Shown here: positions 7,415 through 37,163 of the stretch, piece by piece | How positions within the stretch are numbered: position 1 is the first letter of the stretch | Layout: each line of letters begins with the position of its first letter | DNA from: Deinococcales bacterium | Lineage (GTDB): Bacteria > Deinococcota > Deinococci > Deinococcales > JAAFIG01 | Direction of reading: 5' to 3' | Assembly (NCBI GenBank): GCA_031414595.1 | Contig: JANNVX010000014.1 | Coordinates: 32,001-96,000, forward strand | Length of the DNA stretch: 64,000 nucleotides | The notes under the pieces: model-generated | What the model saw: the letters and a program-made list of their open reading frames with translations, nothing else | What the model was told of the DNA's origin: nothing | Databases searched by the model: none | Made by a program: the position numbers and the translations under genes

Positions 7415-7419
7415 GAGCT

Positions 7420-13257: not shown

Positions 13258-13959
13258 ATGAAAAAATGGATTGTAATTACCGCTTTAATTGTAGGAACAG
13301 CTTTTGCCTTAGCTCAAAGTAATGGTTTAGCTTTATTCAACAAAGTTCGAGCTATACATGGGGATGCAGCTCTGACTGGACTCAAAACACTCCGAATTAC
13401 AAGTAATGTAGAAAATATTGACTCGGTAGGAAAGGTATCAATCCTTGCAACCCAAGTCGCAATTTACGATTTTGAAAATATGCGTTACAAATTGTTGGTC
13501 AGCACAGGAAATCAAGCTATAGACGGGTATCGAATAACTTCAAATGACTCAACTCAATGGACTCCGAAGGGCATCAAAGCAATCCCAGAAAGTCAAGCAA
13601 ACATCCTGCGGTATACATTTGTTCAAGGTATCCTACCTTTACGCCTCAATCCACAAACATGGACTTCAATCAATCAGACTTCTGGTACTATCGCAGGTTT
13701 GAACGGGGACATATTAACGTTGCAAAGTGCATCACAACGTACTTCATTACTTGTAAATAATGATGGTGAAATTCAGGCACAACGTTTTACCGTAGGCGAT
13801 CAATTTGAGACTGTCTTTGGGGAGTATCAAGTTATTTCAGGAATTCGCTTTGCAACTCGAGAACGATTACTGAGAAACGGGAATTTTGCCATTAGATTAT
13901 CGCATACCAAAATTAATGTTAATCCTTCACTCAATGCTACAGATTTTATTTTGCCGTAA
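13258..13959 (+). CDS. Hypothetical exported protein
   Basis: Signal peptide MKKWIVITALIVGTAFALA; RBS AAGGA. Confidence 0.7.
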   Translation: MKKWIVITALIVGTAFALAQSNGLALFNKVRAIHGDAALTGLKTLRITSNVENIDSVGKVSILATQVAIYDFENMRYKLLVSTGNQAIDGYRITSNDSTQWTPKGIKAIPESQANILRYTFVQGILPLRLNPQTWTSINQTSGTIAGLNGDILTLQSASQRTSLLVNNDGEIQAQRFTVGDQFETVFGEYQVISGIRFATRERLLRNGNFAIRLSHTKINVNPSLNATDFILP

Positions 13960-14590: not shown

Positions 14591-14911
14591 TCACTTCGTT
14601 GTACTCTTTTGACGTTTAGGTGGTAAATGATTTGAAGAAGGTTGTGCCAATAAATCAGATGGCTCAAGACCCATCTTTCGAGCTACTGTGAACAATCGAA
14701 GCAAAGTAGGATTAAACCGCCAGACCTGTTTACTCTCGAGTTGCTGATACCAATTCAGTCCAATGCCCAGTTGCTCGGCTGCCTTTTCTTGTGTCCAACC
14801 CAATTCCAATCTGCGTTGCCGAATGCGACTTTGAATCAATCGCAAGTATTCTGCATCTCGAGAATCTAATTCTCGTAGGAATTCTGTCAGTGCAGTTGAG
14901 CGTTGCGGCAC
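14591..14911 (-). CDS. XRE-family HTH transcriptional regulator
   Basis: IRQRRLELGWTQEKAAEQLG..YQQLE...NPTL. Confidence 0.85.
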   Translation of the reverse strand: MPQRSTALTEFLRELDSRDAEYLRLIQSRIRQRRLELGWTQEKAAEQLGIGLNWYQQLESKQVWRFNPTLLRLFTVARKMGLEPSDLLAQPSSNHLPPKRQKSTTK

Positions 14912-17140: not shown

Positions 17141-17584
17141 ATGCAAGCATTTATTCCCACAAGACCAGCACCCGCTCCACCAAGAGTATCACTGCTTGGA
17201 CTAAAAGCCACAACCATTTTAGAGGTTGGTGAAGCAGTCGAAAACGGTTTTGCCACAAGCCTTGTCAAGCGGTTTGCTTCGCATATCAATGCTTCGTTGC
17301 AAGATACACTCAAACTGCTGGATATAAGCAAACGCACTTTTCACCAATACCAACGCCATAAAAAGCCTCTGAGCCGAAGTGTAAGTATCAATGTGCTTCT
17401 CTTAGCCCAAATCACAGAGGCAGCCGAGCAGTATTTTGAAGATAAAACCAATGCCCATGCTTGGCTTGCCACACCTCGAACTACTTTTGGAGGCACGACA
17501 CCTCTTCAGTTCAGTCTGCTGCCCAATGGGGCTGAATACGTTAGAGCCGTGTTGAACAAACTCGAGCATGGGGTTGTTACGTGA
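17141..17584 (+). CDS. Xre/MbcA/ParS-type antitoxin (partner of RES toxins), apparently orphan
   Basis: ISKRTF HTH; A..WL.TP...FGG.TPL....GAEYV..VL.KLEHG. Confidence 0.8.
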   Translation: MQAFIPTRPAPAPPRVSLLGLKATTILEVGEAVENGFATSLVKRFASHINASLQDTLKLLDISKRTFHQYQRHKKPLSRSVSINVLLLAQITEAAEQYFEDKTNAHAWLATPRTTFGGTTPLQFSLLPNGAEYVRAVLNKLEHGVVT

Positions 17585-17724: not shown

Positions 17725-18117
17725 CTAAGCGTCTTCCTCATCTCTAAGCTCTCGAGTGAATATGTTGGATTCGCAATCAATTGGATGAAGACCTATGAAT
17801 TCTGCATAATCAATGTCGTTCTTTTCAAGGTTTTGGTGTTCGTTTTTATGGACTCCATTTAATCCTTCATCCAACATCCGAGCCAAATCCTCGACTTTCC
17901 CGCCCCGCTCCTTGAGAAGACGACAAAATTCTTGCCTGCCGATTGATTTTACCAAATCATCCCTATCAAAGAGCATCGCTGCGTATAATCTTGGTTCTGG
18001 CATAAAGGTTTTGTCGTGACTTGAGAATGCAATCAGGTCATAGTTAAGGTCACTTCTTTCACGAATCGCCACAAGACGCTTCCCGTACAGGTAAAAATGT
18101 GTGTTTTTCGGTAACAT
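17725..18117 (-). CDS. Hypothetical protein (start uncertain)
   Basis: Open frame; GAGG upstream of ATG 18117. Confidence 0.5.
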   Translation of the reverse strand: MLPKNTHFYLYGKRLVAIRERSDLNYDLIAFSSHDKTFMPEPRLYAAMLFDRDDLVKSIGRQEFCRLLKERGGKVEDLARMLDEGLNGVHKNEHQNLEKNDIDYAEFIGLHPIDCESNIFTRELRDEEDA

Positions 18118-18298
18118 TGTTGCCATCCTCATGCACTTGTAGAAAAGAACCTTGCAGCACCACCACAACCAAATCCCAACGACCACCAATGCTCAAAAAT
18201 CACGATTATGACTACTCAAGTAGGAAACGATACTATTGAGGTCATGCTGTGATGATTGATTTCAAACCAAAAGTAAATCATGAAACCACAAATAATCA

Positions 18299-18688
18299 CT
18301 ACCTACCACGGTATCCAAAAACAAAAGCTGGAACTGGCTTGCTCATCGTCTCAAAGTCGGCTTTGACCTGTTGCCTATGATTGGTCTGACGGGTGCTACC
18401 AGTGGGTTGCAATTGGTCTATCCAAAGTTCCAAAGCATCTTCTGGTGAGTCTTCGTAAACCTCGAGTATTTTAGGTTCGGTCGGTTTGATGCTATCCCAA
18501 TGGATGTACCGATGTAAGCGTTGTAAATGCTGTTCTGGACTTTGACTCGAGGCAATCAGTCCAAGCATGTGTGATTCCTCGAGCATGATTGAACCTGCTT
18601 CTTCGCTTCTTAGAAGTTGCAGTAATTTACTGGTGTAGTCACGCCAGACTGTGTTGACTTCACGTTTTTGACGGTTTCTTTGGCTCAT
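18299..18688 (-). CDS. Hypothetical protein
   Basis: ATG 18688 with GGAG RBS; paralogous remnant at 13989. Confidence 0.7.
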   Translation of the reverse strand: MSQRNRQKREVNTVWRDYTSKLLQLLRSEEAGSIMLEESHMLGLIASSQSPEQHLQRLHRYIHWDSIKPTEPKILEVYEDSPEDALELWIDQLQPTGSTRQTNHRQQVKADFETMSKPVPAFVFGYRGR

Positions 18689-18741
18689 ATGATTTACTCC
18701 TTTTACACATCTTTTGCTTGTAGTTGCTTTTATTTGAGAAA

Positions 18742-19086
18742 TTATCCAAACTTCCTTTGAACCAAACGCCAGCACAAAGTGACCATCAGACCAGCGAATA
18801 GAATCACTGCCCAACTTGGTAATTGCAGAATCACCGCCAAGCTGTATGAGTAAACCCCAGCACAAAAGGTTAAAGACCAGACCAATGGAATTTTGGCAAA
18901 TAATTGTAGAAACGCATCAAGATTATGCCCATAGTGCTTCTCGAGCAAGAATAGGATGATGGCAAAGACCATCAGGCTCGAGACAAGACAAAGCCCAATT
19001 GAGGCATTGACAGTCACGAGTAATCTTGTTGTCAAACCTCCAGCCAGAACTGCAAAAACAAGCAACTCGAGGTGAACCCTTTTCAT
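18742..19086 (-). CDS. Hypothetical membrane protein (about 4 TM segments)
   Basis: Hydrophobic segments; 4-nt overlap with upstream gene. Confidence 0.65.
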   Translation of the reverse strand: MKRVHLELLVFAVLAGGLTTRLLVTVNASIGLCLVSSLMVFAIILFLLEKHYGHNLDAFLQLFAKIPLVWSLTFCAGVYSYSLAVILQLPSWAVILFAGLMVTLCWRLVQRKFG

Positions 19087-19436
19087 GGTGTCTCCAAGTT
19101 CGCCTTGCCAAAAAACCGAGTATTCATTTGTTCTCGTAACCGATGATTCTCAAGGGTGAGTTTACCAAGTAAGCGCTCGAGTAGGATTTCTTGGGCTTTT
19201 GATCGCTCGAGTTGTTTTTGTAGATTCAAATTCTCGGTCTCGAGTAAACCAGATTGTTGTTCTGAACTAATAAAAGCATCATTACCAAAGCGTTCATATA
19301 AAGCTCGCCAAGAAAATAAGGTTGAAGCTAGGATTTTATGTTCTCGAGCCACAGCACTAGGTCGTTTGTGTTGTTCAATGACTTCCTTGACCATTCGCAA
19401 CTTAAATTCGGGGGTGTATAACTTTCGGTTTTTCAT
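19083..19436 (-). CDS. IS3-type OrfA-like HTH/leucine-zipper protein without OrfB
   Basis: RKLYTPEFKLRMVKE...VAREHKI..STLFSWR plus coiled coil ending LGKLTLEN. Confidence 0.75.
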   Translation of the reverse strand: MKNRKLYTPEFKLRMVKEVIEQHKRPSAVAREHKILASTLFSWRALYERFGNDAFISSEQQSGLLETENLNLQKQLERSKAQEILLERLLGKLTLENHRLREQMNTRFFGKANLETP

Positions 19437-19903
19437 GGTCTAGTCCTTACATTAAATGTAATCGTGTGAATCACGGTATCTTTTGTATCTCGAGGAAGTT
19501 CAGTAAGCTCTAATTGATGCTCGTTATTTAGGGTAAAAGCTATGGTGATTCGGCTTTTGGTTAAAGTCCATCCATCACTATTTACAGCACTTGATTCAAG
19601 AACTTGTAAAAAAGTGGTTAGAGCTTTCTCAAAGGTCGTCATAAATTGGGGGATTGGTGTTCCAAAATCATTAACAGTAAAACTTTGGCTATCCACTGAA
19701 AATTCAATGTGTACAAGTTCTTCCTTGGTGGTTACGCTGGTTGCAAGGTTTAGTTCGCTTGCTTTTCGGGTTTTGCTTGCTTTATCGAGATAGAACGCCC
19801 ATGTCACTTGGGTGATCTGAATTCTTGTGCCTAAAAGGTTATAGGTGTGCGCTATATTGAAGGTGCTTTGTACCGCACCAAGATAATCAATGGGCTGGTT
19901 CAT
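19433..19903 (-). CDS. Hypothetical protein
   Basis: Coupled by 4-nt overlaps on both sides. Confidence 0.65.
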   Translation of the reverse strand: MNQPIDYLGAVQSTFNIAHTYNLLGTRIQITQVTWAFYLDKASKTRKASELNLATSVTTKEELVHIEFSVDSQSFTVNDFGTPIPQFMTTFEKALTTFLQVLESSAVNSDGWTLTKSRITIAFTLNNEHQLELTELPRDTKDTVIHTITFNVRTRP

Positions 19904-20619
19904 TCTCGTGTCCCTAAGCCTAACTCGAGACCATCATCCAAAAGATGGTTTTCATGCTCGTTAGTTAAATTTTCCTCGAGAATAACTTTGCGTTTCATGG
20001 GTGGAATCCATTTCTTCCAATGCTCTGGGATTTCTAATCGCATTGGCTTGAGATTTTGAGCAATTAAGAAACCATGCTCGAGAACCCCAGTCATGTGTAG
20101 ATACCGAGCATCTTCGACCAAATTCAGTAAATCGAGGGTGGTTTTAGCACTGACCACAAATGGTTCTATTTTTTTGTTGTCTGGTGGGTAAACTCGCAGC
20201 AATACTAATTTCTCAGCTCGGTCTAAACGGAGGACTTTGCCAGCCGCACTCCAGAAGGTATCAGCACCATTCAAATCAACGGCATTCTCGAGGGGCATGA
20301 CTCGAGCCAAGGTGAGGTTGGCTAAGCGTTGGTCTTTGAAGGTCTTGCCGTACAACGTGGCTCTCCAAGTACCAGAGAGTTGGATTGAAGACTGTTCAGG
20401 GTGGGTGTTGCGCCACCTCGAGAAAACCCTTGGGTGAACTCGAGCGATGTAAGTACCATTTTTTGGATTGCCAAGTTGAATGGTGACTCGAGTGTTTTGC
20501 TGGTCATCTTGGATGGTGGCATTGGCTTGGATGAAGAAATGGTGGTTATAGTCGGTGTGAATACCTTTTGGCATTGGCTGTGGTGTGGTTACAAGAGTTT
20601 CAAAAACGTCATTTGACAT
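19900..20619 (-). CDS. Hypothetical protein, paralog of 20652-21248
   Basis: Shared WSA.G...D....LV..RVYP.....PF..SA motif; RBS GGAG. Confidence 0.75.
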   Translation of the reverse strand: MSNDVFETLVTTPQPMPKGIHTDYNHHFFIQANATIQDDQQNTRVTIQLGNPKNGTYIARVHPRVFSRWRNTHPEQSSIQLSGTWRATLYGKTFKDQRLANLTLARVMPLENAVDLNGADTFWSAAGKVLRLDRAEKLVLLRVYPPDNKKIEPFVVSAKTTLDLLNLVEDARYLHMTGVLEHGFLIAQNLKPMRLEIPEHWKKWIPPMKRKVILEENLTNEHENHLLDDGLELGLGTRE

Positions 20620-20651
20620 GCTATCTCCTATTCACGGGTTTCTTATCGTCT

Positions 20652-21248
20652 TTAGTTGGCTTTCCAGTTGCGCCAACGATCAGGAATTTCTAAATCTTGA
20701 TTGGTTAATACTTCTGCAACAAGCTTTTTGCCACTTAAGTTCCCTATCAAATGGACAAACTCATTTTTTCTTGGCAACTCTTGTTCTACTTTCAAACTGG
20801 CTGAAATCAAAAATGGCGTGGCTCGAGCTTGCTCAGGGTAAACCCGAATCGTGACCAATCGGTGTATTGGGTCACTTTTGGTGATTTGTCCAATAGCACT
20901 CCATCGCGGCTGGTGGGAATCTTCTCGTTCTAACTCGAGGGGTTCAATACGATGTAGGTGAAGTGGTTCAAACAGCACACTATCGTTCAAAGTGCGGAAA
21001 TGAAGCGTACATAACCACCAACGATGACTTGCTGGGTTGAGCCTTAACACATCTGCACTGGCTTTAACCCGAAGCATGGTGCTATCGGAGAGTTGGATGT
21101 CCATATTGTTACCGCTCCCTGAATCGTAAATACAAGCCGCCACTCGCATAAAAGCATGGCATCCATCAGGAATAGGAAAATCAAAAGTGAGTTTTCGTGG
21201 GGTAGTGGTCAATGGTCTGCCTCGAGCTTGGATTTTGTGACTGGTCAT
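20652..21248 (-). CDS. Hypothetical protein, paralog of 19900-20619
   Basis: Same motif; ATG 21248 after AGAGGTGG. Confidence 0.75.
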   Translation of the reverse strand: MTSHKIQARGRPLTTTPRKLTFDFPIPDGCHAFMRVAACIYDSGSGNNMDIQLSDSTMLRVKASADVLRLNPASHRWWLCTLHFRTLNDSVLFEPLHLHRIEPLELEREDSHQPRWSAIGQITKSDPIHRLVTIRVYPEQARATPFLISASLKVEQELPRKNEFVHLIGNLSGKKLVAEVLTNQDLEIPDRWRNWKAN

Positions 21249-21390
21249 AAGAAATGCCACCTCTGTACACATCGGATCGTGTTTGTTACAAAAGGTGGTG
21301 GTGTTAAACGAGATTGATTGTCTTGAACTGCCAACATGAGTTGTAAGCTCAAGTGCTGACCCTAATTGCTTGGGGCATTTACATTATAAC

Positions 21391-21443: not shown

Positions 21444-21671
21444 ATGCCTCGCTTTGCGGTAGACCCAGAGATAATACGTGTTCGCATTCGTCAATTACGA
21501 CTCGAACAGGGTTTAACCCAAGATGAAGTAGCAGCCCGAAGTGGAATCAACGAAAAGCACTATCAAGACCTCGAGACGGGAAGGAAAGCCTTTAATCCTA
21601 CTCTCGAGACCCTCAATGCTTTTGCTTTGACCTTTGAAGTGGAACTGGCTGTCCTTCTAAAATCGGAGTAA
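21444..21671 (+). CDS. XRE-family HTH regulator upstream of the tniQ-cas operon
   Basis: IRQLRLEQGLTQDEVA.RSGI...YQDLE.G...NPTL. Confidence 0.88.
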   Translation: MPRFAVDPEIIRVRIRQLRLEQGLTQDEVAARSGINEKHYQDLETGRKAFNPTLETLNAFALTFEVELAVLLKSE

Positions 21672-21838: not shown

Positions 21839-22798
21839 GTGTTTCATATGATTGAAACTGCCAAAAACCCACACTGGGCAATCCACCCTCAAATCCAAAA
21901 TGGTGAGTTGTTTGAATCTTGGATTGTGCGGTTGAGTGCCGAAAATGGCTTTCGCCTGCGCGAAGTGATACAGCAATTAGAACTCAAAAATGTCTTTTGT
22001 TCTAAAAACAATGTTGAGATCAAAGCCGTAAGAAAATTGTCGGATGCAACTGGGATACTTCAATATCGAATCCTCGAATCCCATCTTGGGTGGCTTCAAA
22101 ATCACTCTGATCTTGCCTATGCAAAAACATTTACCCTTTGGGGGCGTAGCCCATCGGACACGATACAGCATTTTAAGTTTTGCCCAGACTGTTTTGCTAA
22201 TCAAGACAAGCCACACATACTGCTTGACTGGGCATTTGAAATCACTCAGTTCTGCACGGTACATCAACGACCTTTACTCGAGCGTTGTCCAAAATGCCGC
22301 GAGCCACTTCAGTTTAGTTTGCTTTTCAACAAAACAATACAACCCGAAATCTGCTCTAATTGCAGCACAAAAATGAAAATCCATGCTCGGAAACACAGCA
22401 TTGATTTCAAATTTGGTCTCGAGCTACAAAGACAAATCTTGAGCCTCCGAAAACATGACCAAGTATCACCAAAACAATCACGAATTATCCCAGCAAAAAC
22501 GTTTTTATCAATTGTTGAGCGGATATTTTATCGCTTTACCAATTTACCCAACCAGCAAACCTTCTCTAAATTGACTGATCTCTCAGTTATGTTGCTGGAT
22601 GATCGTTTTTCGCAAGCGTACCGAAGAATAAACGCCCTGACCATTTGTGGCTGGCTTTTAGCCGACCCAATAGTACGAATTATTACTCTGCGCCAATTCA
22701 CGCAAAAGTATGTTGAATACTCGACGGCTATTCAAATTATTTCTGTTCTGAATTATGCACAAGCGACATTGCAACCACGTAATGGAACTTACCAATGA
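21839..22798 (+). CDS. tniQ: TniQ family target-selector protein
   Basis: N-terminal HP....GELFESWIVRLS..NG; zinc-binding FCPDC, FCTVH...LLERCPKC and CSNC; start at 21839 or 21848. Confidence 0.9.
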   Translation: MFHMIETAKNPHWAIHPQIQNGELFESWIVRLSAENGFRLREVIQQLELKNVFCSKNNVEIKAVRKLSDATGILQYRILESHLGWLQNHSDLAYAKTFTLWGRSPSDTIQHFKFCPDCFANQDKPHILLDWAFEITQFCTVHQRPLLERCPKCREPLQFSLLFNKTIQPEICSNCSTKMKIHARKHSIDFKFGLELQRQILSLRKHDQVSPKQSRIIPAKTFLSIVERIFYRFTNLPNQQTFSKLTDLSVMLLDDRFSQAYRRINALTICGWLLADPIVRIITLRQFTQKYVEYSTAIQIISVLNYAQATLQPRNGTYQ

Positions 22799-23529
22799 GC
22801 TTATTTGCACTCGAGGTTTGGGGCGATTACGCCTGTTTCACACGTCCTGAAACAAAAGTTGAAAGACTTAGTTACCCTGTGATGACTCCAAAAATTGCTC
22901 GAGCAATTTTTGGAGCGATCTACACCCAGTTTTCTGGGGGTGAAACACCTCACACAACTTTTTTCTGGCAAGTCAGGCGAATCGAAATCCTCAATCCAAT
23001 TGTGTTTATTTCGTTCTCACACAATGAAGTCAAAGGGAGAGCAAGCACTTACAACATTTTGCGCTCAGTTCATCAGCCCGACGCACTTCAACCGCTCATG
23101 GCAGATGGCAATGATGATTCCAGCAAAGAGACTGGGCGCACCCAACGCCAATCAATGATTTTGCGCGAGGTGCGTTATCGGATATTCGCTGAACCAGTGC
23201 TGTACAATCCAAACCAAAGCAATCTGAAGCAAATCACCCACGAATTTGCTCGACGTGCAGCCAAAGGCAAGTGTTTCCATCAGCCTTTTTTGGGATGCCG
23301 TGAATACATAGCATTTTTCCAGCCAGTTCCGCCCACATTTGGCGTTGGCGCACCGATTTTTGAAGATATTGGTTGGATGATCTACGATACGTTTGATCTA
23401 TCACAGCCAAGCTCAATCACCATTACACCAAGCATTAGTATCTTCAGGGCGACGATTCAAAACGGTGTTCTCGAGATACCGCCGTATGATAGCAACGAGG
23501 TACGCAAACTAGGACTGGGAGTGATTTGA
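22795..23529 (+). CDS. cas5c: Type I-C Cas5 (Cas5d)
   Basis: LEVWGDYACFTRPE.KVER.SYPVMTP; RRA.KG.CFHQPFLGCRE; F.A....GVL. Confidence 0.97.
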   Translation: MSLFALEVWGDYACFTRPETKVERLSYPVMTPKIARAIFGAIYTQFSGGETPHTTFFWQVRRIEILNPIVFISFSHNEVKGRASTYNILRSVHQPDALQPLMADGNDDSSKETGRTQRQSMILREVRYRIFAEPVLYNPNQSNLKQITHEFARRAAKGKCFHQPFLGCREYIAFFQPVPPTFGVGAPIFEDIGWMIYDTFDLSQPSSITITPSISIFRATIQNGVLEIPPYDSNEVRKLGLGVI

Positions 23530-25343
23530 TGCTCGAGGCTCTGATCGAATATGCTCACCGAAAACAATTGGTTCTCGAGCCTGGTTTTGCTGGCAGGCGT
23601 ATTCATTGGTTAATAAATCTTGACTCTAAAGGACAGGTTCAATCCGTTTCTTTTGCAGATGAATCCAAGCGACGAGCGAAGTTGTTTCCATGCTGTCCAG
23701 ACCTGCAACAGCCCCAACTGATCAGGCTGCCACATGTACTTAAACAGCTTGGAATACTATCAACACGAGCAGCCCACTTTTTAATGGATTCATGTTGTCG
23801 TGTGGTGCTTTATCCAGATAACGATCAGTTGGAACAACATAAGACTTTTCTAAACCTAATCCAACTAGCAAGCCAAGAAGTTAGGATATTACGACCAGTT
23901 GCAAAAATGCTTTCAAAGCAAAAGGAAATTGGTCGAGTACATCAAGCCCTCATTCAATTGAAAGCCACAAAAACCGACAAAGTATCGTTTTCGGTGGATG
24001 GAGTGGTCATACTTGAGGATACAACGTGGCATGATTGGTGGCGAAGATTTTATATAACCACAAGCTCAAAGCAAAATTCAGATCGTATGATCAGTCTGGT
24101 TTCAGGAGAAGTTATTTCGCCTGCCAGAACACATCCAGCGCTTAAATCCTTGGTCGAAAAAAAAGTAACTTTTGGAGCGGCAGTAGTGGCTGTGCATAAA
24201 ACTGCCTTTACCTCATATGGGCTAAAACAAGCCGAACACGCCGCCATGTCAGGAGCATCTGCCGCTGCCTATCATGCAGCTCTGGAAGATTTATTGAGAC
24301 AAACTAGGATGGTTCATGGTACGAAAGCGGTGTATTGGTACAACCAAGAAATTCCACTACAATCCGACCCACTGGCGCTGATGTTGCGCGATGAACGCAT
24401 AGATAACATCAACTACCGAAAACAGCTTGAGGATATTCTTTCACAAGCTCGAAAAGATGATTCTCGAGATGTTGCTTGCCATATTGCTGTGTTGCGTGAA
24501 AATGAAAATCGGGTCAGGATTTCATTGTACAAAACGCTGCGATTGAGTGAAGTGGCGGCTGGACTTATTAAATGGCTCGAGGATACTTCAATTGATGGTT
24601 TGGCAGGTACTGGTTTCGTAGTTGATCTACCCAGCGAATTTGCTGGTATGTTTCGTCAACGAGTTGGGGGAAAAAGCGATAAGGCACTTGACTTTCAACC
24701 ACTACTGATTGTGTTGTACCAGCAGATGCTCAACCCCACTCTACCCATTGCGATGGCTCTGGTTGATTATTCACTTAAATCGGTCATTACCAGCTTTGTA
24801 AAAGGCAAATTTCAGGCAGCATTTGCAACCAAGGCAGATTTACCATTGCGACAAAATTTGGTGATTTACATGGGTATTTTGAAAGCATTTTGCCGTCACT
24901 CAGGTGATCGAGACCTATTGCAACAACTGAATCCTAATCATCCTAATTCACACTATCAAACAGGTCGGCTCACTGCGATGCTCGAGCGTATTGATGGGTT
25001 GAATAATCCTCCACATGTTGAACTCAAAAACCAAAGGTTGTTTTTGCAAATTATGACGACACCGAACAATATCCTGCAAGAAAAAATGGCTTCCAGTCAA
25101 CGAAAGCTCAAGCGACTTGAAAGAACTCGACGATGGTTCAGCCTATACTTACAAAAAGAAATGAATACGATTTGGGAGAATCTTGATGCTAAGGTTCGGA
25201 GTAATAGCTCAGTAAAACGCCAATGCTTATTCCTATTGGGTTACTTTCAACAAACCATTTCTCAATTGATTGAACCTGTGCAAAACGATGATTTTTACAA
25301 TTTGGAGTCGAGAACCTTTAAGGAGCAACATGAAACCGATTGA
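23526..25343 (+). CDS. cas8c: Type I-C large subunit Cas8c/Csd1
   Basis: ML.AL..YA N-terminus; AFTSYG..Q...A; C-terminal Y..GRL.A.LE and Q..FLLGYFQQ; lies between cas5 and cas7. Confidence 0.9.
   Translation: MMLEALIEYAHRKQLVLEPGFAGRRIHWLINLDSKGQVQSVSFADESKRRAKLFPCCPDLQQPQLIRLPHVLKQLGILSTRAAHFLMDSCCRVVLYPDNDQLEQHKTFLNLIQLASQEVRILRPVAKMLSKQKEIGRVHQALIQLKATKTDKVSFSVDGVVILEDTTWHDWWRRFYITTSSKQNSDRMISLVSGEVISPARTHPALKSLVEKKVTFGAAVVAVHKTAFTSYGLKQAEHAAMSGASAAAYHAALEDLLRQTRMVHGTKAVYWYNQEIPLQSDPLALMLRDERIDNINYRKQLEDILSQARKDDSRDVACHIAVLRENENRVRISLYKTLRLSEVAAGLIKWLEDTSIDGLAGTGFVVDLPSEFAGMFRQRVGGKSDKALDFQPLLIVLYQQMLNPTLPIAMALVDYSLKSVITSFVKGKFQAAFATKADLPLRQNLVIYMGILKAFCRHSGDRDLLQQLNPNHPNSHYQTGRLTAMLERIDGLNNPPHVELKNQRLFLQIMTTPNNILQEKMASSQRKLKRLERTRRWFSLYLQKEMNTIWENLDAKVRSNSSVKRQCLFLLGYFQQTISQLIEPVQNDDFYNLESRTFKEQHETD
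24918..25343 (+). CDS. cas11: Putative internally translated Cas11 (141 aa, in frame within cas8c)
   Basis: AGGTGA at 24902-24907, then an in-frame TTG at 24918 just before the Y..GRL motif. Confidence 0.55.
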   Translation: MQQLNPNHPNSHYQTGRLTAMLERIDGLNNPPHVELKNQRLFLQIMTTPNNILQEKMASSQRKLKRLERTRRWFSLYLQKEMNTIWENLDAKVRSNSSVKRQCLFLLGYFQQTISQLIEPVQNDDFYNLESRTFKEQHETD

Positions 25344-26295
25344 AAATCGCTACGAATTTCTACTCATTTTTGATTGCGAAAATGGCAATCCCAATGGTGA
25401 TCCCGACGCAGAAAACCTTCCAAGAATAGACTCCCAAGACGGTCATGGATTGGTCTCTCCAGAATCAATCAAACGAAAGATTCGTGACCGTATTGCCCTG
25501 AATGGTATAGAAATCTTTATCCAACACCAAACCAATCTCAATCGTGCGATTTTTGCGGCGCGTGAACAGAGTAATACCTTAAAAGACAAATCCACCAAGA
25601 TAACATTACAAAACGCCGCTGCAATTATGTGTAAACGATTTTATGATGTTCGGACTTTCGGTGGGGTAATGACTACAGGTGTCAATTCAGGTCAATTGAC
25701 TGGACCTGTGCAGATTACATTAGCTCGCAGTGTTGACCCAGTTCATATCATGGATTGGGGAATTACTAGAGTGGCTGTTGCCGAAACTGTCCAAGGAGCA
25801 AAAACCCTGGCTGACTACGAACAATGGGAATCCGAACAAAATGCTTCAGATTTAAGAACTATGGGACGGAAAAGCCTGATTCCATATGGATTATTCGTAG
25901 CCAAAGGCTGCATCAGTGCGTTTGATGCGGAAAGAACAGGGTTTTCAGAAGCTGACCTCGAATTGCTCTGCGAAAGCATGTTAGACATGTTTGAACACAG
26001 TCGCAGTGCCAGTCGTGGTTTGATGACCACAAGGCGCTTGGTAATTTTTAAGCATATAGGATCATCCAAAGACCCCAAAGTGCGCCTCAAACAAGCTAAA
26101 CTAGGGCGTATTCCAGCACAAAATTTGCTCGAGTTAGGCAGAATTGTTCGCATTTCTCGCGTCAATAAAGATGCTTTTCCTCGAGCCTATCACGATTACG
26201 ACGTGGTTGTGGATACCAGTGCATTACCAGAAACCATTGAAGTGCTGGATTTAGATTTGTGGGATGAAGAAAAGTTTCGCTCGGCTTGGGTTTAA
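25330..26295 (+). CDS. cas7c: Type I-C Cas7 (Csd2)
   Basis: IENRYEF...FD..NGNPNGDPDA.N.PRID; FYDVRTFG.V; GPVQ; TMGRK..PYGL; ATG 25330 after AGGAG. Confidence 0.97.
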   Translation: MKPIENRYEFLLIFDCENGNPNGDPDAENLPRIDSQDGHGLVSPESIKRKIRDRIALNGIEIFIQHQTNLNRAIFAAREQSNTLKDKSTKITLQNAAAIMCKRFYDVRTFGGVMTTGVNSGQLTGPVQITLARSVDPVHIMDWGITRVAVAETVQGAKTLADYEQWESEQNASDLRTMGRKSLIPYGLFVAKGCISAFDAERTGFSEADLELLCESMLDMFEHSRSASRGLMTTRRLVIFKHIGSSKDPKVRLKQAKLGRIPAQNLLELGRIVRISRVNKDAFPRAYHDYDVVVDTSALPETIEVLDLDLWDEEKFRSAWV

Positions 26296-26467
26296 GCGAA
26301 CCCTTAGTGGCACTAAAATCACCTATAGTTCGCGGAAACCAAATTTCGTCTATGACGTGATTCTTCTGTGCGATATTGAGTAGTGATCAAAAAATTAATG
26401 TTGAATTATTGGGTTCGCAGAATGTATTCCTTTTTGACTTTGTACTATGAAAAGATATACATTTACA
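26296..26467 (+). promoter_or_regulatory. CRISPR leader with predicted promoter TTGACT(26434)-18 bp-TACATT(26458)
   Basis: GCGAACCC...GTTCGC...GGGTTCGC leader-type motifs; AT-rich; ends at the first repeat. Confidence 0.7.
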
Positions 26468-26645
26468 GTCTCAATGGCATCTAGCCGTCGAGACGCTTGA
26501 AACCAAACCCGACGAAAGGATGCACATTACGATAATCCGTCTCATGGGCATCTAGCCGTCGAGACACTTGAAACATTGCCATCTAAAGTCCAATCACATA
26601 CATTGGCATGTCTCTATAGCTTTTAGACATTGCGATGCTCGAGAT
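26468..26645 (+). CRISPR. Minimal CRISPR array: 36-nt repeats at 26468, 26539 and degenerate 26610; two 35-nt spacers
   Basis: Repeat GTCTCAATGGCATCTAGCCGTCGAGACGCTTGAAAC (hairpin, GAAAC end); third copy is 24/36 identical; period 71. Confidence 0.92.
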
Positions 26646-26750: not shown

Positions 26751-26808
26751 GCCTCAACGGTACTTAGCCATCGAGACGCTTGAAACTAACCAATTGACCT
26801 ATATGCCC
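26751..26808 (+). CRISPR. Delocalised atypical repeat (26751-26786) plus tRNA-targeting homing spacer (26787-26808)
   Basis: Repeat GCCTCAACGGTACTTAGCCATCGAGACGCTTGAAAC; spacer TAACCAATTGACCTATATGCCC matches the minus strand of 27086-27107 at 18/22. Confidence 0.88.
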
Positions 26809-26890
26809 GAATTTATTTTTTCCAAAGCCTCTTGTTCCAGATATGCGGAGGTCAAAGCCAAAAGGTTTGCTTGAAAGGAGTATTGGGATC

Positions 26891-27038
26891 ACTGACACGG
26901 TAAACGATAAGAAATGATATAGAATTTAACTCGAGTTCGTTAAACACAATGTTTATTTAGGAAAGTTCAATCAGTGCCACGGTAAACGATATTGACATTC
27001 ATAAAAATAATTACTGACAAAGTAAACGATAATTCACA
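26891..27038 (-). repeat. Tn7-like transposon end with three TnsB-type binding repeats
   Basis: ACTGACACGGTAAACGAT (26891), AGTGCCACGGTAAACGAT (26973), ACTGACAAAGTAAACGAT (27013), then 8 bp AATTCACA, i.e. a 5'-TGT terminus. Confidence 0.85.
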
Positions 27039-27043
27039 CCTAT

Positions 27044-27072
27044 TTGCCAAATGTGCATTTTACGGTTAATCT
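27044..27072 (+). promoter_or_regulatory. tRNA promoter TTGCCA-17 bp-TAATCT
   Basis: Canonical spacing, 13 bp upstream of the tRNA. Confidence 0.7.
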
Positions 27073-27085
27073 AGGGGTCGTGCGA

Positions 27086-27162
27086 GGGTCTATAGCTCAA
27101 TCGGTTAGAGCGGAGGTCTCATAAACCTTAGGTTCGGGGTTCAAGTCCCCGTGGACCCACCA
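27086..27162 (+). tRNA. tRNA with CAT anticodon, most likely tRNA-Ile2 (lysidine); elongator Met not excluded
   Basis: Full cloverleaf: GGGTCTA/TGGACCC acceptor, GCTC/GAGC D-stem, GAGGT-CTCATAA-ACCTT, CGGGG-TTCAAGT-CCCCG, ACCA end. Confidence 0.95.
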
Positions 27163-27678: not shown

Positions 27679-30600
27679 TTACATATCCCAATGCACACGG
27701 CTGGTATCTTGGGCTTTTTCAATCACTAAACGGATTGGTAAGCGGTCTGCGAGGGCTGGGACGTGAGTTATTACGCCAACCATGCGCCCTTGGGTTTGCA
27801 GGTTCTCTAAGGTGTTGGCGACCATTTCCAAGGCATCTGCGTCGAGTGTGCCAAAGCCCTCATCTAAAAAAAGTGCGCCTAGGGCTTGGCTTCCAGCTAG
27901 ATAATCGGACAGGGATAAAGCCAGTGCAAGCGAAGCAATAAAACTTTCGCCACCCGAAAGGGTTTTTACGCCTCGAGATTCTAAGCCGTTCCAAGCATCC
28001 CGAACATGAAACTCTGCATCTATCAGTTCGAGCGTATAGCGTTCTCGAGTGATACCCTGCAAGGTTTTGGTGGCACGTTGCAGCAGTTGTTGTTGGACTC
28101 CTGCCAGTAAATAGTCTTGGAATTCATTGCCTTTCATATCTAGGGCTAGGGCAGCGTAAGTGTCAAAGCGTTTTTCTAGCCCGTTTTGCTCACGGCGTAG
28201 GTCTTTAGCTTGTTTAATCTGTTGTTCTAACTGGGTTTTTTCGGCTTCGAGTTGCCCAAGTGTGCGGCGCAAGGTTTGGTTTTGTTGTTCTAAATTTTGC
28301 TGTTGCTGCTCGAGTTCTTCGGGTGGTGTCTCGGGTTTTCTGCCGCCCAATTCTTCAGCAATTTGGTTTTGGCGTTGTTGCACCAACAATTGATTTTGCA
28401 GGTGTTTTTGGATGCTTTCCTCGAGTGCCAAAATTTCGGCTTCGGGTAGGCTTTGGCTTAGCGCGGTTTGGCTGTCTAAAAAACCCAATTCTGCGAGTTT
28501 GGCTTGGGTGGTTTCTTGGGCTTGCATAGCTTCTTGCTGGGCGGTATTTAAGTTGTTGCGTGTGGCTTCTAAGGCACTTTTTAGGCTGGCGGTCTGGGTT
28601 TTAGCGTTTGTGTACGTTTCTCTGGCTTGGCGCTCATTCTGCTCGAGTTGCGAGCGCTTGGTTTTGAGGTTTTCAATCTCGGTTTTGAGGTTTTCATTTG
28701 CGCCAGCTTGCCGTAATTCATAAGCAAAAGCCCCAAGCAGTTTTTGTTTAGCGGCTTGTAAGGCAGCATTGGCGTTGCTGTGTACGCCCAGCCGAGCCTC
28801 GAGTTTAAGCACCAAGGTTTTGCGTTCGCTTTCGATTTCTAGGCGTTGCTGCTCGAGCCGAAGGCTTTCTTGCAAGGCATTTTTTTGTTCTGCCTGACGG
28901 CTTTCTAAAAGCGAAACGGCTGCCTCGAGACGGCTTTGTTGGCTGGCAAGTTGCGCTTTTGTTTTACTCAGTTGCTCAGATGCACTTTTTTCGGCTTGCT
29001 GCAATTGTGTTTTGTTTTGCTGCAACTGCCTAACACGGTTTTCAAAATCGGTGGCTTGGCTTAATTCATTGGCTAAACCAGAAAGTAATTCGGCTCGAGC
29101 CGTTTGTAAGGCACTTTTGGGGTCGGTGGAATCTGAAAGCACATCTTGCCAGCCTTGCAATAGTTGCTCGAGTTCTTCGCTTGTCTCACGCAAGGTTTTT
29201 TCAACTCGAGCCACTTCTTTAGCTGCACTCATTTTATTTTGTTCATGGTTTTTAGCAGCTTCTTTTAAGCGAGTGAATTCATCACGTAAACGGCTGACCT
29301 CGAGCAATCCAACTTGCAGGGCTTTTTCGGACGTTGGCACATTGGCATTAAAATCTGGCAGGGTTTTAAGTGGTTCGCCACACACAGGGCAAGGGTCGCC
29401 GATATTTAAGTCGCGTACCAATTCAGCCGCGATATTCTCACGTTTTGCGGCTTCGAGTTTTGCCTCGAGTTCTTTTTGAGTGGCTGCCGCGATTTTCCCA
29501 TCGCTCAGAACCGTGTTTTGCATGGTTTTTGTTTCTTCAAGTTGGGCTTCCCATTGTAGCAGTTCATCCCTTGCCGTCTCGAGTTCGGTTTTGGTGTTGC
29601 CAATTTGTTTGACAATTCGGACATGGGTTTTTAATTCGTTCTGGACAGTCATTATTCTCGTCCAAGCCTGTTCACTAAAACTTGGTGCGAGCGGACTGGC
29701 ATCTTCAAGCTGCCCACCAAGTTCGCTTAAACGTTTTAATTTGGGTTTTAACGCCTCGAGTCCACGCAGTTCTTCTTCTAAAACGGGGATTTGCAGGGCG
29801 GCTTCTCGAGCCGTTTCTAGTGCGTGCATGTCCTCGATTTGTCTTTGCTGCACATCTTCAAGAACTTTTTGTTGCTCGAGTAGCGCGGTCTGGGCTTCTT
29901 TAAGACGAAGACCAACCGTTCCAAGTTCGGCGCGGCGGCGTTCAAGTTCTTTGAGTTGTTTTTGACTTCGTTCCAAAAGTGGTAATTGGGCGCTTAGTCG
30001 CTCGAGTTCACTCCAAGCAGTTTCAGTGAACGGTTCGCCCTCGGCAGTATCGCTCAGGCTTCCACCCAAGGCTTCCAATCGTTCTAAACGCGGCACAAGC
30101 GCCGTTAAAGCCACCACCTTATCCTCGAGATGTTTCGTGCCAAGGGCGGCTTCTCGAGCCGTTTCTAAAGCCTCTAAATGCTGTTGCTCGAGCCTGTGCG
30201 CCGACTCAAAACGCTGCTGGGCGGTTTCAGCTTCCCGTTTAATTTGACCAAGCCGCGCTTCAAGTTTTATGTTTTGTTCAATCAATGGCAAAATACTCGC
30301 CACGCGCCGTGCAGCTTTAGCTTGGGTTTGTAGTGCTTCAATTTTTGCTTGGGCAGCCTCTAAACCCTGCCACTCGAGTTTTACATTTTGCAGCGCGGTT
30401 TCTAAACGCCAGATGTCCCTTGCCTCAATCAGTGCCGTCTTTAACCGCTCGAGTTGCTGACCTGTCTGCTCGAGTTCCCTTTGTTTTTGCAGTTGTGTGG
30501 TTTCTAGCGTCTCGAGCGCTTCTGGTGTGGCAGTGGAGAGCGATTCTAACTGAATTTGCAATGCCTCAGATTTAGTTTTGGCTTCTCGAGCCAGTTCACC

Positions 30601-31134
30601 ACTGCGTTTTTGGATGTTTTCGATTCGCTCTAAACCAATCAAATTCTTGAGTAAATCACGGCGTTGCTTGGGTTCACCGCGCAAAAAACGATCAAATTCA
30701 CCCTGCGGTAACAGTACCGCTCGAGTAAAACCTTCAAAATCCAAACCGACGGTGCGTTCAATCGCTTCAGCAACTTCTTTTTTCTTGATTTGCTCAACCG
30801 CCGTAACCCATTTATCATTTTCCAAGCGCTCAAACCGAACTTCCGAACTTTTACTCGAATAAGTGCGAGCCACACGATATTTGCGTCCATCAGAGGCTTC
30901 AAATTCAAGACTTAAACTCATGCCGCTACTGCCTTGGGCAATCAGTTCCTTGGCGGGTTTAGAACCTAAACGCGGGGTTTGTTCAAACAGTGCAAAGGTC
31001 AGGGCATCTAAAATACTCGATTTTCCCGCGCCAGTCTGCCCAACAATTGCAAATAACTCGAGATTCGAGAAGTCAATCACCGTCAAATCCCTAAAACACG
31101 TAAAACCCTGCAATTCTAAGCGAAGCGGACGCAT
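27679..31134 (-). CDS. sbcC: SbcC/Rad50-type SMC ATPase
   Basis: Walker A GQTGAGKS, LLPQGEF, zinc hook CPVCG, signature LSGGE, Walker B LFLDEGFG. Confidence 0.93.
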   Translation of the reverse strand: MRPLRLELQGFTCFRDLTVIDFSNLELFAIVGQTGAGKSSILDALTFALFEQTPRLGSKPAKELIAQGSSGMSLSLEFEASDGRKYRVARTYSSKSSEVRFERLENDKWVTAVEQIKKKEVAEAIERTVGLDFEGFTRAVLLPQGEFDRFLRGEPKQRRDLLKNLIGLERIENIQKRSGELAREAKTKSEALQIQLESLSTATPEALETLETTQLQKQRELEQTGQQLERLKTALIEARDIWRLETALQNVKLEWQGLEAAQAKIEALQTQAKAARRVASILPLIEQNIKLEARLGQIKREAETAQQRFESAHRLEQQHLEALETAREAALGTKHLEDKVVALTALVPRLERLEALGGSLSDTAEGEPFTETAWSELERLSAQLPLLERSQKQLKELERRRAELGTVGLRLKEAQTALLEQQKVLEDVQQRQIEDMHALETAREAALQIPVLEEELRGLEALKPKLKRLSELGGQLEDASPLAPSFSEQAWTRIMTVQNELKTHVRIVKQIGNTKTELETARDELLQWEAQLEETKTMQNTVLSDGKIAAATQKELEAKLEAAKRENIAAELVRDLNIGDPCPVCGEPLKTLPDFNANVPTSEKALQVGLLEVSRLRDEFTRLKEAAKNHEQNKMSAAKEVARVEKTLRETSEELEQLLQGWQDVLSDSTDPKSALQTARAELLSGLANELSQATDFENRVRQLQQNKTQLQQAEKSASEQLSKTKAQLASQQSRLEAAVSLLESRQAEQKNALQESLRLEQQRLEIESERKTLVLKLEARLGVHSNANAALQAAKQKLLGAFAYELRQAGANENLKTEIENLKTKRSQLEQNERQARETYTNAKTQTASLKSALEATRNNLNTAQQEAMQAQETTQAKLAELGFLDSQTALSQSLPEAEILALEESIQKHLQNQLLVQQRQNQIAEELGGRKPETPPEELEQQQQNLEQQNQTLRRTLGQLEAEKTQLEQQIKQAKDLRREQNGLEKRFDTYAALALDMKGNEFQDYLLAGVQQQLLQRATKTLQGITRERYTLELIDAEFHVRDAWNGLESRGVKTLSGGESFIASLALALSLSDYLAGSQALGALFLDEGFGTLDADALEMVANTLENLQTQGRMVGVITHVPALADRLPIRLVIEKAQDTSRVHWDM

Positions 31135-31826
31135 TAGCTAATCTGCTCGAGCGGAAGGTGGGTCAGGCGATTGGCATAAATGAGTTCGGTGCTTTGGTGG
31201 GTGCTTTCGTGGACATCAATCCGCGTGATACCGGTGTTATTGAGTTGAAACCAGTGCTTACCCGAACCTACCGCTACGCCAAGCGCTTGCCCCATAATAT
31301 GAGCGTAAAAATGCCCATGCGAAACAATCGCAACTCGGTCTTTTGTGCCACCATGACGCTTGAGTAATTCTGCCCACATCTGAACGGCTCGAGGGTTACA
31401 GTCTAGTTCTACGGCTCGAGACCACCAGCCTTGTGTGCCGTAAATCGAAAAATCTATGCTCGGAAAACGCGCCCCCAGTTCGGCTCGGTTCTTGCCAGAT
31501 TGCCCAAGGCGTTGCCCATCCTGCTCGAGCCAAATACCACCAGTTTCATGCCATTCTTCCCAGATTATAGGGGTTAAACCTGTGCCACGGCTAATCTCGA
31601 GCGCGGTGTGAATCGCCCTTGTCATGGTACTACAATACAAATGTGTAAAACGCTGACCACTTTCAAGCGGGTCGGTATTGCGAGTCAAAAAATCACCTAG
31701 GGTAGTCGCTTGTTTGACCCCAAGACTTGATAGTTCAGGGTCATCAGAACGCCCCAATTCTGCGCCAGTGGCATCAAAAAGAGCATTGTTAAGACTTTGG
31801 GCATGGCGAATAAAGTAAAACCGCAT
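31134..31826 (-). CDS. Histidine phosphatase (phosphoglycerate mutase family)
   Basis: YFIRHAQS, S...RA..TA, IVSHG. Confidence 0.9.
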   Translation of the reverse strand: MRFYFIRHAQSLNNALFDATGAELGRSDDPELSSLGVKQATTLGDFLTRNTDPLESGQRFTHLYCSTMTRAIHTALEISRGTGLTPIIWEEWHETGGIWLEQDGQRLGQSGKNRAELGARFPSIDFSIYGTQGWWSRAVELDCNPRAVQMWAELLKRHGGTKDRVAIVSHGHFYAHIMGQALGVAVGSGKHWFQLNNTGITRIDVHESTHQSTELIYANRLTHLPLEQIS

Positions 31827-35660: not shown

Positions 35661-37139
35661 TTAGTAAGAATTATTTTGAGCTAAGTGGCTCACTTGACTA
35701 GCAGTCCAAACGGTGGTTTGCGGAATGAAATTAAAGTTTTGTGCAATTGGCTGGCTCGAGACGGCTACAGCAGGTTTAACACCAAGGCTTTCTAAGGCTT
35801 TCTCGAGTGGTTCGTCTCGTCCTGTGTTGAAGAATTTATATTCAAAGTTTTCGGTCAGTACATCGGGTTTAACTTGAGCAGGTAGGTTCCCTCCTGTTGA
35901 CCACACGGCTTGAATTGTAGGCATTCCAGCCGCTCCACCGTTCGCCAATCCAAAACGGGCGGTGTTGGTGTTGCCAATACCGACAGTCGGTGAACCGAAC
36001 ACTTGGGCGCGTTTGGCTTTCTGGATATAAGAAGCAAAGTATTCACAACCAGAAGCACAACCGCCATCCACCAGGACGGCTAGGGGTCCTTTATAGACAA
36101 CAGGGTTAATAATACTAAGACTAATAAGTTCGACTTTTTGTAAGTTGCGTGCAAAAACTCTTCCAGCGTTGTAACCCCATTCAATCGTGTTTCGGGCTGG
36201 ATTATAACGAGGAGTCCACTGCATTAAGTCTGGTGTTTCGATAAAAGCACCAACCGAAGCAATCGTCTCGAGGACACTGCCACCGCCATTGCTGCGTTCG
36301 TTGTAAATGATGCCTTTTGCGCCTCTAGCAACAGCTTCACGCACAAGTTCATGAAGTTTTTGGGCAACCCCATTGATTTGAAAATCTTTCATGGTAATCA
36401 TCGCAATACCATCTGGGCGAATCTCGAGTCCAGGTTGTTCGGATGTGTTGATCAGTTCGCCTTTGATTGGAAGTTCAATCCGAGTGCGATTGAGACCGCG
36501 CAGTAAAATCATTTTAATCGTTTCGCCAGCCCGTACTTTGGTTGTGAAATCGGCATATGACTTGTTGATATTTTCGAGGTTGCCATCAAAACTAGCAAAC
36601 ACCACGTCGTTATAACCAATCCAACGGTCACCATATTTAATACCTGCCTTATCAGCAGGGGCATCTTTGACAACACTGGAAACAAACCGATCACCAATGA
36701 ATTTACTGGTTAGGTTTCCTTTGTCATCTGTGCTGCATTCACCGGTTGGCGTTTCACAAAAGTTGCGTAAACCAATACCAATTCGAGGTGTTGGACTGGT
36801 GGCTGCTCCGCCTCGGTTGGCATTTTCTTGGGCAACGTTAGCGGCGGTTAGATAGTAGGTATGGTCATCTTTGAAATCATCGAACAATTGCACCAGCAAA
36901 GGTTCAACTTTGTCATAGCCACATTTTTCTTTAAGCTCGCTACAGGCTTCGTCTACTTTAGCTTGGTACTTGGCAATGATTTCTTGGACATTGATGGTAC
37001 TCGGACCAAAATACTGGGTCTCGAGGAAAAAAGCCGCTTGGTCAAATAAATCTTGGGCGGGGCTTCCAATGTATTTCTGGGCGCTGGCAACCGAGCCAAG
37101 CGCGGCAGCAATGGCAATGATTCGTACAAGGTTTTTCAT
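35661..37139 (-). CDS. S41 family peptidase with PDZ domain
   Basis: Signal peptide; [14 protein letters not shown]. Confidence 0.88.
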
Positions 37140-37163
37140 GTGTCCTCTTTTGGAGAATGGGTT

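Follow-up and report, generated by a model that had tools for sequence, protein, structure and literature searches.

Target-proximal end and homing guide of a probable type I-C CRISPR-associated transposon upstream of a tRNA(CAU) gene in a Deinococcales genome

Introduction

The question raised by the locus described here is why three similar short repeats stand just upstream of a tRNA gene with the anticodon CAT and, if they form the end of a mobile element, how that element came to lie there. The repeats were found in a stretch of 64,000 nucleotides from a Deinococcales bacterium (GenBank assembly GCA_031414595.1, contig JANNVX010000014.1, positions 32,001 to 96,000 of the forward strand), which is hereafter called the window and in which all coordinates are counted. 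A first-pass annotation had read them as the end of a CRISPR-associated Tn7-like transposon beside the tRNA gene, and this reading is supported by the tniQ, cas5c, cas8c and cas7c genes, by a mini CRISPR array, by a homing spacer and by an empty site in a related contig (L003). We consider it highly probable that the three repeats are TnsB-type binding sites, that they mark the target-proximal end of an element of the type I-C CRISPR-associated transposon (CAST) kind, and that this element was guided by its CRISPR RNA (crRNA) to the tRNA(CAU) gene, on the 5' side.

Results

End repeats and terminus

The pattern ACTGACANNGTAAACGATA, searched for on both strands of the 64 kb with at most 3 mismatches, was matched three times, always on the plus strand (26891-26909, 26973-26991 and 27013-27031), against 0.10 matches expected from shuffled sequences, and none of the 100 shuffles reached three. 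A repeat finder lengthened the unit to 23 nt (copies at 26888-26910, 26970-26992 and 27010-27032, with start-to-start spacings of 82 and 40), the second and third copies being 87% identical to the first. When the whole window was scanned on both strands with the 23-mer consensus, the three copies scored 23/23, 20/23 and 20/23, and the next best site 17/23. These direct repeats (26888-27032, plus strand), which are spaced and do not overlap, are putative binding sites of TnsB, a function proposed from their sequence and arrangement.

In the last copy, the core GTAAACGAT extends to 27030, and the 8 bp AATTCACA then run up to the terminal ACA at 27036-27038, which is TGT on the minus strand; on that strand the 8-bp terminal segment (27031-27038) reads TGTGAATT. 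Positions 26891 to 27038 span 148 bp. The end therefore has the anatomy of a Tn7-like end in two respects: a terminal segment of 8 bp of the TGT/ACA type, whose outer boundary is set by the empty site described below, and several repeats of about 20 bp, all in the same orientation, in the last 150 bp or so before the terminus. All coordinates and numbers given for this end in the first-pass annotation (three spaced repeats over 148 bp, the last of them 8 bp from a TGT terminus at 27038) proved correct. We keep its label "left end" in an operational sense, which is fair given the spaced sites and a cas operon that reads towards this end.

Junction and empty site

The initial 25 nt of the tRNA, which include the protospacer and its protospacer-adjacent motif (PAM), served to scan a genome-contig collection. 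Exact matches were obtained in three contigs, all of them from Deinococcales metagenome-assembled genomes (MAGs) and each carrying a tRNA-Met(cat) according to ARAGORN. In two of them, L001 and L002, the same tRNA (98.8% identity over 83 nt including flank in L001, 100% over all 77 nt in L002) stands in unrelated surroundings. The third, L003 (1,861 bp), provides the empty site: its positions 1-819 align to window positions 27857-27039 with 95.6% identity over 819 bp, and its positions 820-1861 (1,042 bp) have no match in the window. In a MAFFT alignment the homology breaks exactly at 27038/27039, just left of the sequence CCTAT, L003 reading ...GCGTTTATTCT CCTAT TTGCCAAATGTG... and the window ...GATAATTCACA CCTAT TTGCCAAATGTG.... 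Because the homology starts at 27039, the foreign DNA ends at 27038, which is the last base of the transposon.

L003 carries CCTAT once, directly before the same TTGCCA as in the window. This pentanucleotide (27039-27043 in the window) is the presumed 5-bp target-site duplication, and a single copy in the empty site is compatible with that, one junction being visible. The end repeats themselves are missing from all three contigs; in L003 there is neither a match to the pattern nor a 23-mer with at least 14/23 identities to the repeat consensus. For the latter reason, and because it is offset by 4 nt, an ATTACTG..C likeness of L003 to the third repeat in the MAFFT alignment was set aside as a chance resemblance. 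Relatives that lack the island and keep the repeats would speak against a transposon end, as the first-pass annotation had pointed out; the relative found here diverges at the proposed junction, has a single CCTAT and contains no repeats. The unmatched part of L003 also carries, on the other strand, an Exo_endo_phos exonuclease gene (921-1685) that is missing from the window, and for this reason the island must either exceed 27 kb or have been rearranged.

CRISPR array and homing guide

A mini CRISPR array lies at 26468-26645 on the plus strand, where three 36-nt repeats (R1 26468-26503, R2 26539-26574 and R3 26610-26645) enclose two 35-nt spacers (26504-26538 and 26575-26609). R1 and R2 form hairpins with the 9-nt tail GCUUGAAAC (z -3.8 and -3.0, respectively), and R3 is degenerate, sharing 24/36 positions with R1 as counted on the alignment. 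An atypical repeat (26751-26786, plus strand) stands 105 nt beyond the array; it differs from R1 at 6/36 positions, is identical to it in the last 16 nt and has a weakened hairpin (-4.9 kcal/mol, z -0.28). It is directly followed by the homing spacer of 35 nt (26787-26821, plus strand), whose positions 1-22 (26787-26808) are complementary to nucleotides 1-22 of the tRNA and whose positions 23-35 are not. The spacer begins TAACCAATTGACCTATATGCCC, and the reverse complement of tRNA nucleotides 1-22 is TAACCGATTGAGCTATAGACCC.

The mismatches between the homing spacer and its target fall at positions 6, 12 and 18, which are plain, and at position 19, where the sequences would allow an rG-dT wobble. 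In type I R-loops every sixth position is flipped out and takes no part in specificity, according to the accessible text of PMC9881144. Among the positions that are not flipped, 18/19 match the target, and the next best site among the approximately 128,000 positions on both strands of the window matches at 14/19; by our own arithmetic, the chance that three mismatches fall on exactly positions 6, 12 and 18 among 22 is 1 in 1540. The complementarity stops exactly at +1 of the tRNA. Positions 23-35 (GAATTTATTTTTT) do not fit the tRNA leader in the window, and by eye they agree with the leaders of L001 and L002 at 5/13 and 3/13 positions, which is not a better fit than that in the window. A short array together with a specialised guide to the attachment site is thus present beside the end, as in known CASTs.

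The protospacer is read on the minus strand from 27107 down to 27073, its paired part being 27107-27086, and the PAM is 5'-CTC-3' at 27110-27108 (the whole target region being 27073-27110). This PAM, GAG at 27108-27110 on the plus strand, lies inside the D-arm of the tRNA and is the sole instance; the copy of the homing spacer in the array region is flanked by AAC and not by CTC. CTC has been described, in the accessible part of a study of canonical type I-C systems, as an accepted secondary PAM after TTC (bioRxiv 10.1101/2021.10.18.464778).

Since the protospacer is on the minus strand and its PAM is in the D-arm, the PAM-distal side is the upstream side of the tRNA gene. The terminus is 69 bp from the PAM (27039-27107), or 72 bp when counted from the first base of the PAM, and lies 34 bp past the 35-nt protospacer and 47 bp past the paired 22 nt. 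The insertion occurred in the space that separates the tRNA gene from the divergent exonuclease gene of the empty site. Because the protospacer points to the 5' end of the tRNA gene, the element came to lie 47 bp upstream of that gene and 5 bp upstream of the predicted -35 box. Both the 69-bp distance on the PAM-distal side and the position on the 5' side of the tRNA had been given correctly in the first-pass annotation. Insertion PAM-distal of the protospacer, as expected of a CAST, is thus observed, at a distance given by this one insertion.

TniQ and the type I-C cas genes

On the plus strand, the order towards the end is xre, tniQ, cas5c, cas8c, cas7c, the two-spacer array, the atypical repeat with the homing spacer, and the end itself. 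The tniQ gene (21839-22798, plus strand; 316-319 aa) encodes a protein of the TniQ/TnsD family of target selectors, with no DNA-binding domain at the C-terminus, as seen from its matches to the Pfam TniQ family (E 4.5e-16) and the PADLOC TniQ models and from its predicted fold. The AlphaFold2 model (predicted local distance difference test score 88.6) has as its best PDB match the TniQ of a type I-B CAST (8fcu_P, E 1.8e-6), followed by the TniQ proteins of types V-K and I-F3 and by TnsD.

The tniQ gene overlaps cas5c (22795-23529, plus strand) by 4 bp. The assignment of cas5c is based on NCBIfam Cas5c (114 bits, cut-off 85), Pfam Cas_Cas5d and PADLOC Cas5c (E 9e-42). Cas5c is the subunit by which pre-crRNA is processed in type I-C systems. 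The large-subunit gene cas8c (23526-25343, plus strand) is divergent: it matches Pfam Cas_Csd1 (E 1.8e-57) and the type I-C Cas8 structure 8g9t (E 6e-13), and its NCBIfam Cas8c score of 152 bits, the sole family match of that program for this open reading frame (ORF), is below the cut-off of 218.65. Its closest relatives are 50% and 41% identical, and the next one, at 30%, is the canonical Cas8c of Meiothermus ruber. The cas7c gene (25270-26295, plus strand; start codon uncertain) matches NCBIfam Cas7/Csd2 with 277 bits (cut-off 182) and the type I-C Cas7 structure 7kha with E 2e-68. The four ORFs are intact, overlapping or tightly packed, and have full-length family matches.

No cas3, cas1, cas2, cas4 or cas6 gene was found among the 25 + 48 ORFs of the region 6.0-31.8 kb or among 29 ORFs elsewhere in the window. 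The locus thus contains effector cas genes, namely cas5c, cas8c and cas7c only, without the interference and adaptation genes, as in CASTs; and the set without cas6 is that of type I-C, with Cas5c and Cas7c above the family cut-offs and Cas8c below.

The TniQ family is very small. Three proteins were found in an indexed search, and a profile search of 1.84 billion representatives gave 10 proteins with E at most 1e-30 and a sharp fall after about 12. A peptide pattern derived from TniQ had 20 matches in the genome-contig collection, of which 0 were confirmed, so that by this one pattern the collection contains no close relatives of tniQ; the distant family members P0006-P0013 lack this pattern and were not searched for. 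The longest contig listed is 10,633 bp both for a TniQ of 47% identity and for a Cas8c of 50% identity, and this equal length suggests, without proving it, that the pairing of tniQ with type I-C genes is conserved in a relative.

Proposed course of the insertion

Taken together, these observations suggest the following course of events. Cas5c would process the transcript of the array and guide. Loaded with the homing crRNA, an I-C Cascade without Cas3 would bind the antisense side of the tRNA(CAU) gene, where CTC in the D-arm would serve as PAM and tRNA nucleotides 22 to 1 would be spanned by an R-loop. At the PAM-distal end TniQ would dock and recruit TnsC and the transposase, by which the element, presumably mobile now or in the past, would have been joined to the target on the PAM-distal side, 69 bp away from the PAM or 72 bp from its start.

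Several points weigh against this interpretation. No tnsA, tnsB or tnsC gene was found among the larger ORFs of the window or among all stop-to-stop frames of at least 70 aa at 6.0-27.1 kb, so that membership of the Tn7 family would be deduced from the anatomy of the end and from tniQ alone. There is no inverted copy of the repeat on the minus strand at 18/23 or better and no second CCTAT-TGT junction in the window; because of this, the target-site duplication and the completeness of the element are unproven. The guide pairs with its target at only 22/35 spacer positions, no intact repeat was found after it, where only the 10-nt remnant of a repeat 3' end, described below, is present, and it could on these grounds be a relic. 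CTC is not the top-ranked type I-C PAM in the available text of bioRxiv 10.1101/2021.10.18.464778, and the empty site is represented by one short assembly, the 1.9-kb MAG contig L003. Finally, the end with overlapping sites tends to face the attachment site, according to the accessible portion of a review (PMC11406308), and here the end with spaced sites does so; either this is an exception or the sites of the far end are spaced more widely still. The missing tns genes near this end are not surprising, and "left end" is an acceptable operational name.

As to the far end, a search of the window with the terminal 17-mer gave a single further match (19136-19152) with 3 mismatches, which is at chance level and was rejected. 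The other end most likely lies beyond the edge of the window, which does not contain the far side of the empty site either.

Alternative explanations

The main live rival is a fossil CAST, in which the RNA-guided insertion was a real past event and tnsABC or the other end has since been lost, leaving the element immobile. This would account for the lack of tns genes in the island's 27 kb, for the degenerate third repeat of the array and for the missing repeat after the homing spacer. The HTH_Tnp_1 ORF of insertion-sequence type and the seven unassignable minus-strand ORFs that lie just upstream of the module are also compatible with rearrangement. Against it, tniQ, cas5c, cas8c and cas7c are intact with full-length family matches and the end repeats are well kept (20-23/23). 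We regard a fossil as unlikely, while giving it more weight than any other alternative.

Far less probable, in our judgement, is that the island entered by a tyrosine or serine recombinase or by homologous recombination, the Cas/TniQ cluster and the spacer match being unrelated to its placement. In its favour, the far boundary is outside the window. Against it, scans of the ORFs found no integrase family in the 27 kb of island, the junction is 47 bp upstream of the tRNA gene and not in its 3' part, and the ACA terminus is preceded by three direct repeats. In addition, the flanking tRNA gene is matched, at a CAST-like distance and with a valid PAM, by a spacer that lies 230 bp inward from the end.

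A native regulatory role of the repeats in the promoter region of the tRNA, as operators or as an UP-like array, which their position at most 160 bp upstream of the predicted promoter might suggest, can practically be dismissed, since L003 has the same promoter and tRNA with an entirely different sequence and no repeat left of CCTAT, and L001 and L002 have no repeats either.

Comparison with known systems

With a crRNA-homed type I-C CAST as the preferred reading, the locus was compared with published systems, as described in the accessible portions of the sources cited. The closest counterparts are the nine putative metagenomic type I-C CASTs of Rybarski et al. 2021 (bioRxiv 10.1101/2021.08.16.456562), which share with it a Tn7-type context and the presence of tniQ, cas5, cas7 and cas8c without cas3, cas1 or cas2. 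In those loci tniQ adjoins tnsABC and not the cas genes, whereas here it overlaps cas5c; and the descriptions report no detected array, atypical self-targeting spacer, tRNA or other attachment site, all of which were identified here. It is by their descriptions that they are set apart from the present locus, and they may belong to one lineage with it or to another.

Homing guides with atypical repeats are reportedly known from type I-F3 CASTs through the work of Petassi et al. in 2020. The I-F3 systems (PMC11300857, PMC11406308) resemble the present one in the atypical repeat beside a self-targeting spacer for vertical transmission, in an Xre-type regulator and in TniQ-Cascade. They differ in the Cas subtype (no Cas6 here), in the attachment sites and in that their target-proximal end is the tns-proximal right end.

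The attachment guides of type V-K (Hsieh & Peters 2021, 10.1101/2021.02.06.429022) are likewise short homing guides apart from the array and beside the element end, with a tRNA attachment site and a protospacer just outside the end in the opposite orientation, which is the geometry by which V-K guides were found. The differences are the effector (Cas12k versus the multi-subunit I-C Cascade here), the length of pairing (17 nt versus 22 nt with flipped sixth positions), the repeat before the guide (about 13 nt versus a full-length atypical repeat) and the side of integration, which is downstream of tRNA genes in V-K and upstream here.

For the type I-D McCAST (PMC9881144), insertion takes place at 75 +/- 6 bp from the PAM start, the left end lies by the target and the duplication is 5 bp long; the corresponding distance here is 72 bp. 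In the group formed by McCAST and the I-B2 PmcCAST, mismatches at sixth positions are tolerated as they appear to be here (PMC9881144), and the nearest fold to our TniQ is that of a type I-B CAST. The tRNA attachment site of McCAST and PmcCAST is, in contrast, reached by a TnsD protein and not by a guide, and insertion follows tRNA-Leu at 29 +/- 1 bp. They have TAC/GTA ends, in which the sites take both orientations, and the end described here is TGT/ACA with sites in one orientation. Finally, the left end of Tn7 has spaced TnsB sites, an 8-bp TGT/ACA terminal segment and the 5-bp duplication rule, like the present end with its putative sites and presumed duplication, but in Tn7 it is the right end with overlapping sites that faces the attachment site (PMC11406308).

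Attachment tRNA and its promoter

The tRNA gene used as attachment site (27086-27162, plus strand; anticodon CAT) is a Met tRNA according to ARAGORN and matches the Rfam tRNA family with 72.3 bits, the only credible Rfam match obtained. It could be a lysidine-type tRNA-Ile2. By the general rules, its G1-C72 pair indicates that it is not an initiator.

The first-pass annotation had placed a tRNA promoter directly right of CCTAT. The predicted promoter (27044-27072, plus strand) consists of a -35 box TTGCCA at 27044-27049, a 17-nt spacer and a -10 box TAATCT at 27067-27072. Its -35 box is indeed where it had been placed. Upstream of the identical tRNA, the motif TTGCYA-N17/18-TARNCT recurs in three contexts that are otherwise unrelated (window/L003, L001 and L002), and both strands of the whole window contain it only once; when the motif is loosened considerably, it is present in 11% of random 120-nt pieces. 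A generic sigma-70 scan, in contrast, does not call TTGCCA-17-TAATCT, whose -10 element fits the consensus at 3/6 positions only. Judging indirectly, from sequence conservation, TTGCCA-17-TAATCT is likely to be the tRNA promoter.

Other features of the island and the flank

Further elements were noted around the guide. A promoter-like site, TTGACT-18-TACATT (26434-26463, plus strand), ends 4 bp before the first repeat of the array; it is a consensus match only, and the sigma-70-type scan of the region gave 3 sites against 3.2 expected. The remnant of a repeat 3' end mentioned above, TGCTTGAAAG (10 nt, 26867-26876, plus strand), was recognised by alignment and is preceded by a small hairpin; it could be a terminal repeat that has decayed, or else another guide unit in truncated form. 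No CRISPR repeat family of Rfam was matched. For spacers 1 and 2 there was no match among plasmids, none or one of E 0.4 only among phages, and no second site in the window. An Xre-type helix-turn-helix (HTH) gene directly upstream of tniQ (21444-21671, plus strand; 75 aa from ATG; Pfam HTH_3 E 3.6e-11) is, by analogy, a candidate regulator of the CAST module, since CASTs have co-opted transcriptional regulators or xre elements, which are reported beside I-F3 and V-K modules in the literature.

The left 27 kb of the window, which correspond to the island, have a GC content of 43.7% against 47.6% in the flank, and their tetranucleotide correlation to the flank is 0.57-0.82, compared with 0.89-0.94. 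An RHS/YD-repeat protein of more than 2041 aa with a PT-HINT pretoxin domain (2-6127, plus strand) runs off the window start; behind it come an immunity-like gene of the SUKH/SMI1 type and three small ORFs without assignment (6328-6786 and 6950-8256, plus strand). The RHS/PT-HINT and SUKH/SMI1 genes look like a polymorphic-toxin cassette carried by the island. At 8263-13959 (plus strand) there are a protein with Big_7 immunoglobulin-like domains, an S8 subtilase of 696 aa that weakly matches PADLOC subtilase/IetS models, a secretin (425 aa) and two unassigned ORFs. An Xre/MbcA/ParS-type antitoxin gene (17141-17584, plus strand) and a separate antitoxin-like HTH ORF (14591-14911, minus strand) were also found, and Pfam and NCBIfam scans called no recognised toxin partner beside either of them. 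Between the cargo and the CAST module, seven consecutive ORFs occupy the minus strand (17725-21383), of which only 19083-19436 belongs to a family (HTH_Tnp_1, IS3/IS66 orfA-like); the other six have no match in Pfam (E up to 5), NCBIfam or PADLOC.

The flank directly right of the attachment site (27679-31826, minus strand) encodes an SMC-like ATPase of 1151 aa (PADLOC LmuB, E 1e-29) and then a histidine phosphatase, a possible defence gene pair of the chromosome flank. At 35661-41256 (minus strand), four paralogous genes in tandem encode S41 (C-terminal processing) peptidases with PDZ domains. Because parB, parA, gidB, dnaA and dnaN are present at 51840-57538, about 27 kb separate the attachment site from the region in which the replication origin is likely to lie.

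Discussion

Type I-C CASTs are named as a known variety in the accessible parts of PMC11656645 and PMC12669027. In a search that left subscription papers and supplements aside, descriptions of them were found only in Rybarski et al. and Hu et al., and a 2024 review of CASTs contains 0 occurrences of I-C. In the searched literature they are putative metagenomic loci without an array, a homing guide and an attachment site, and it is these three that are new here for a type I-C CAST; a similar element or a tRNA insertion on the 5' side could be listed in the supplements of Rybarski et al. or in the tables of attachment sites by Hsieh & Peters. As the published loci lack all three, the targeting of I-C CASTs could not be analysed before.

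The present locus offers a complete and testable targeting set for a three-gene Cascade without Cas6, comprising the repeat, the atypical repeat, the homing guide, the PAM, the protospacer, the insertion distance, one end and a natural empty site. It also shows how the promoter side of a tRNA gene can serve as a safe harbour, and its spaced-site end facing the target bears on how Tn7-like elements set the orientation of insertion.

We further propose, tentatively and with rather less than even confidence, that this element represents a separate lineage of I-C CASTs borne by Deinococcota and distinct from the metagenomic ones without arrays, homing with a deliberately short guide of 22 nt that stays inside the mature tRNA, and with its spaced-site end placed on the 5' side of the tRNA at the -35 box. 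If this is true, the short guide would be portable among hosts with differing tRNA leaders, and it would keep the residence of Cascade on an essential tRNA gene low and be unusable for a host Cas3. The spaced-site end at the target and the insertion on the 5' side of the tRNA gene would then both be exceptions to the usual geometry of CASTs and Tn7.

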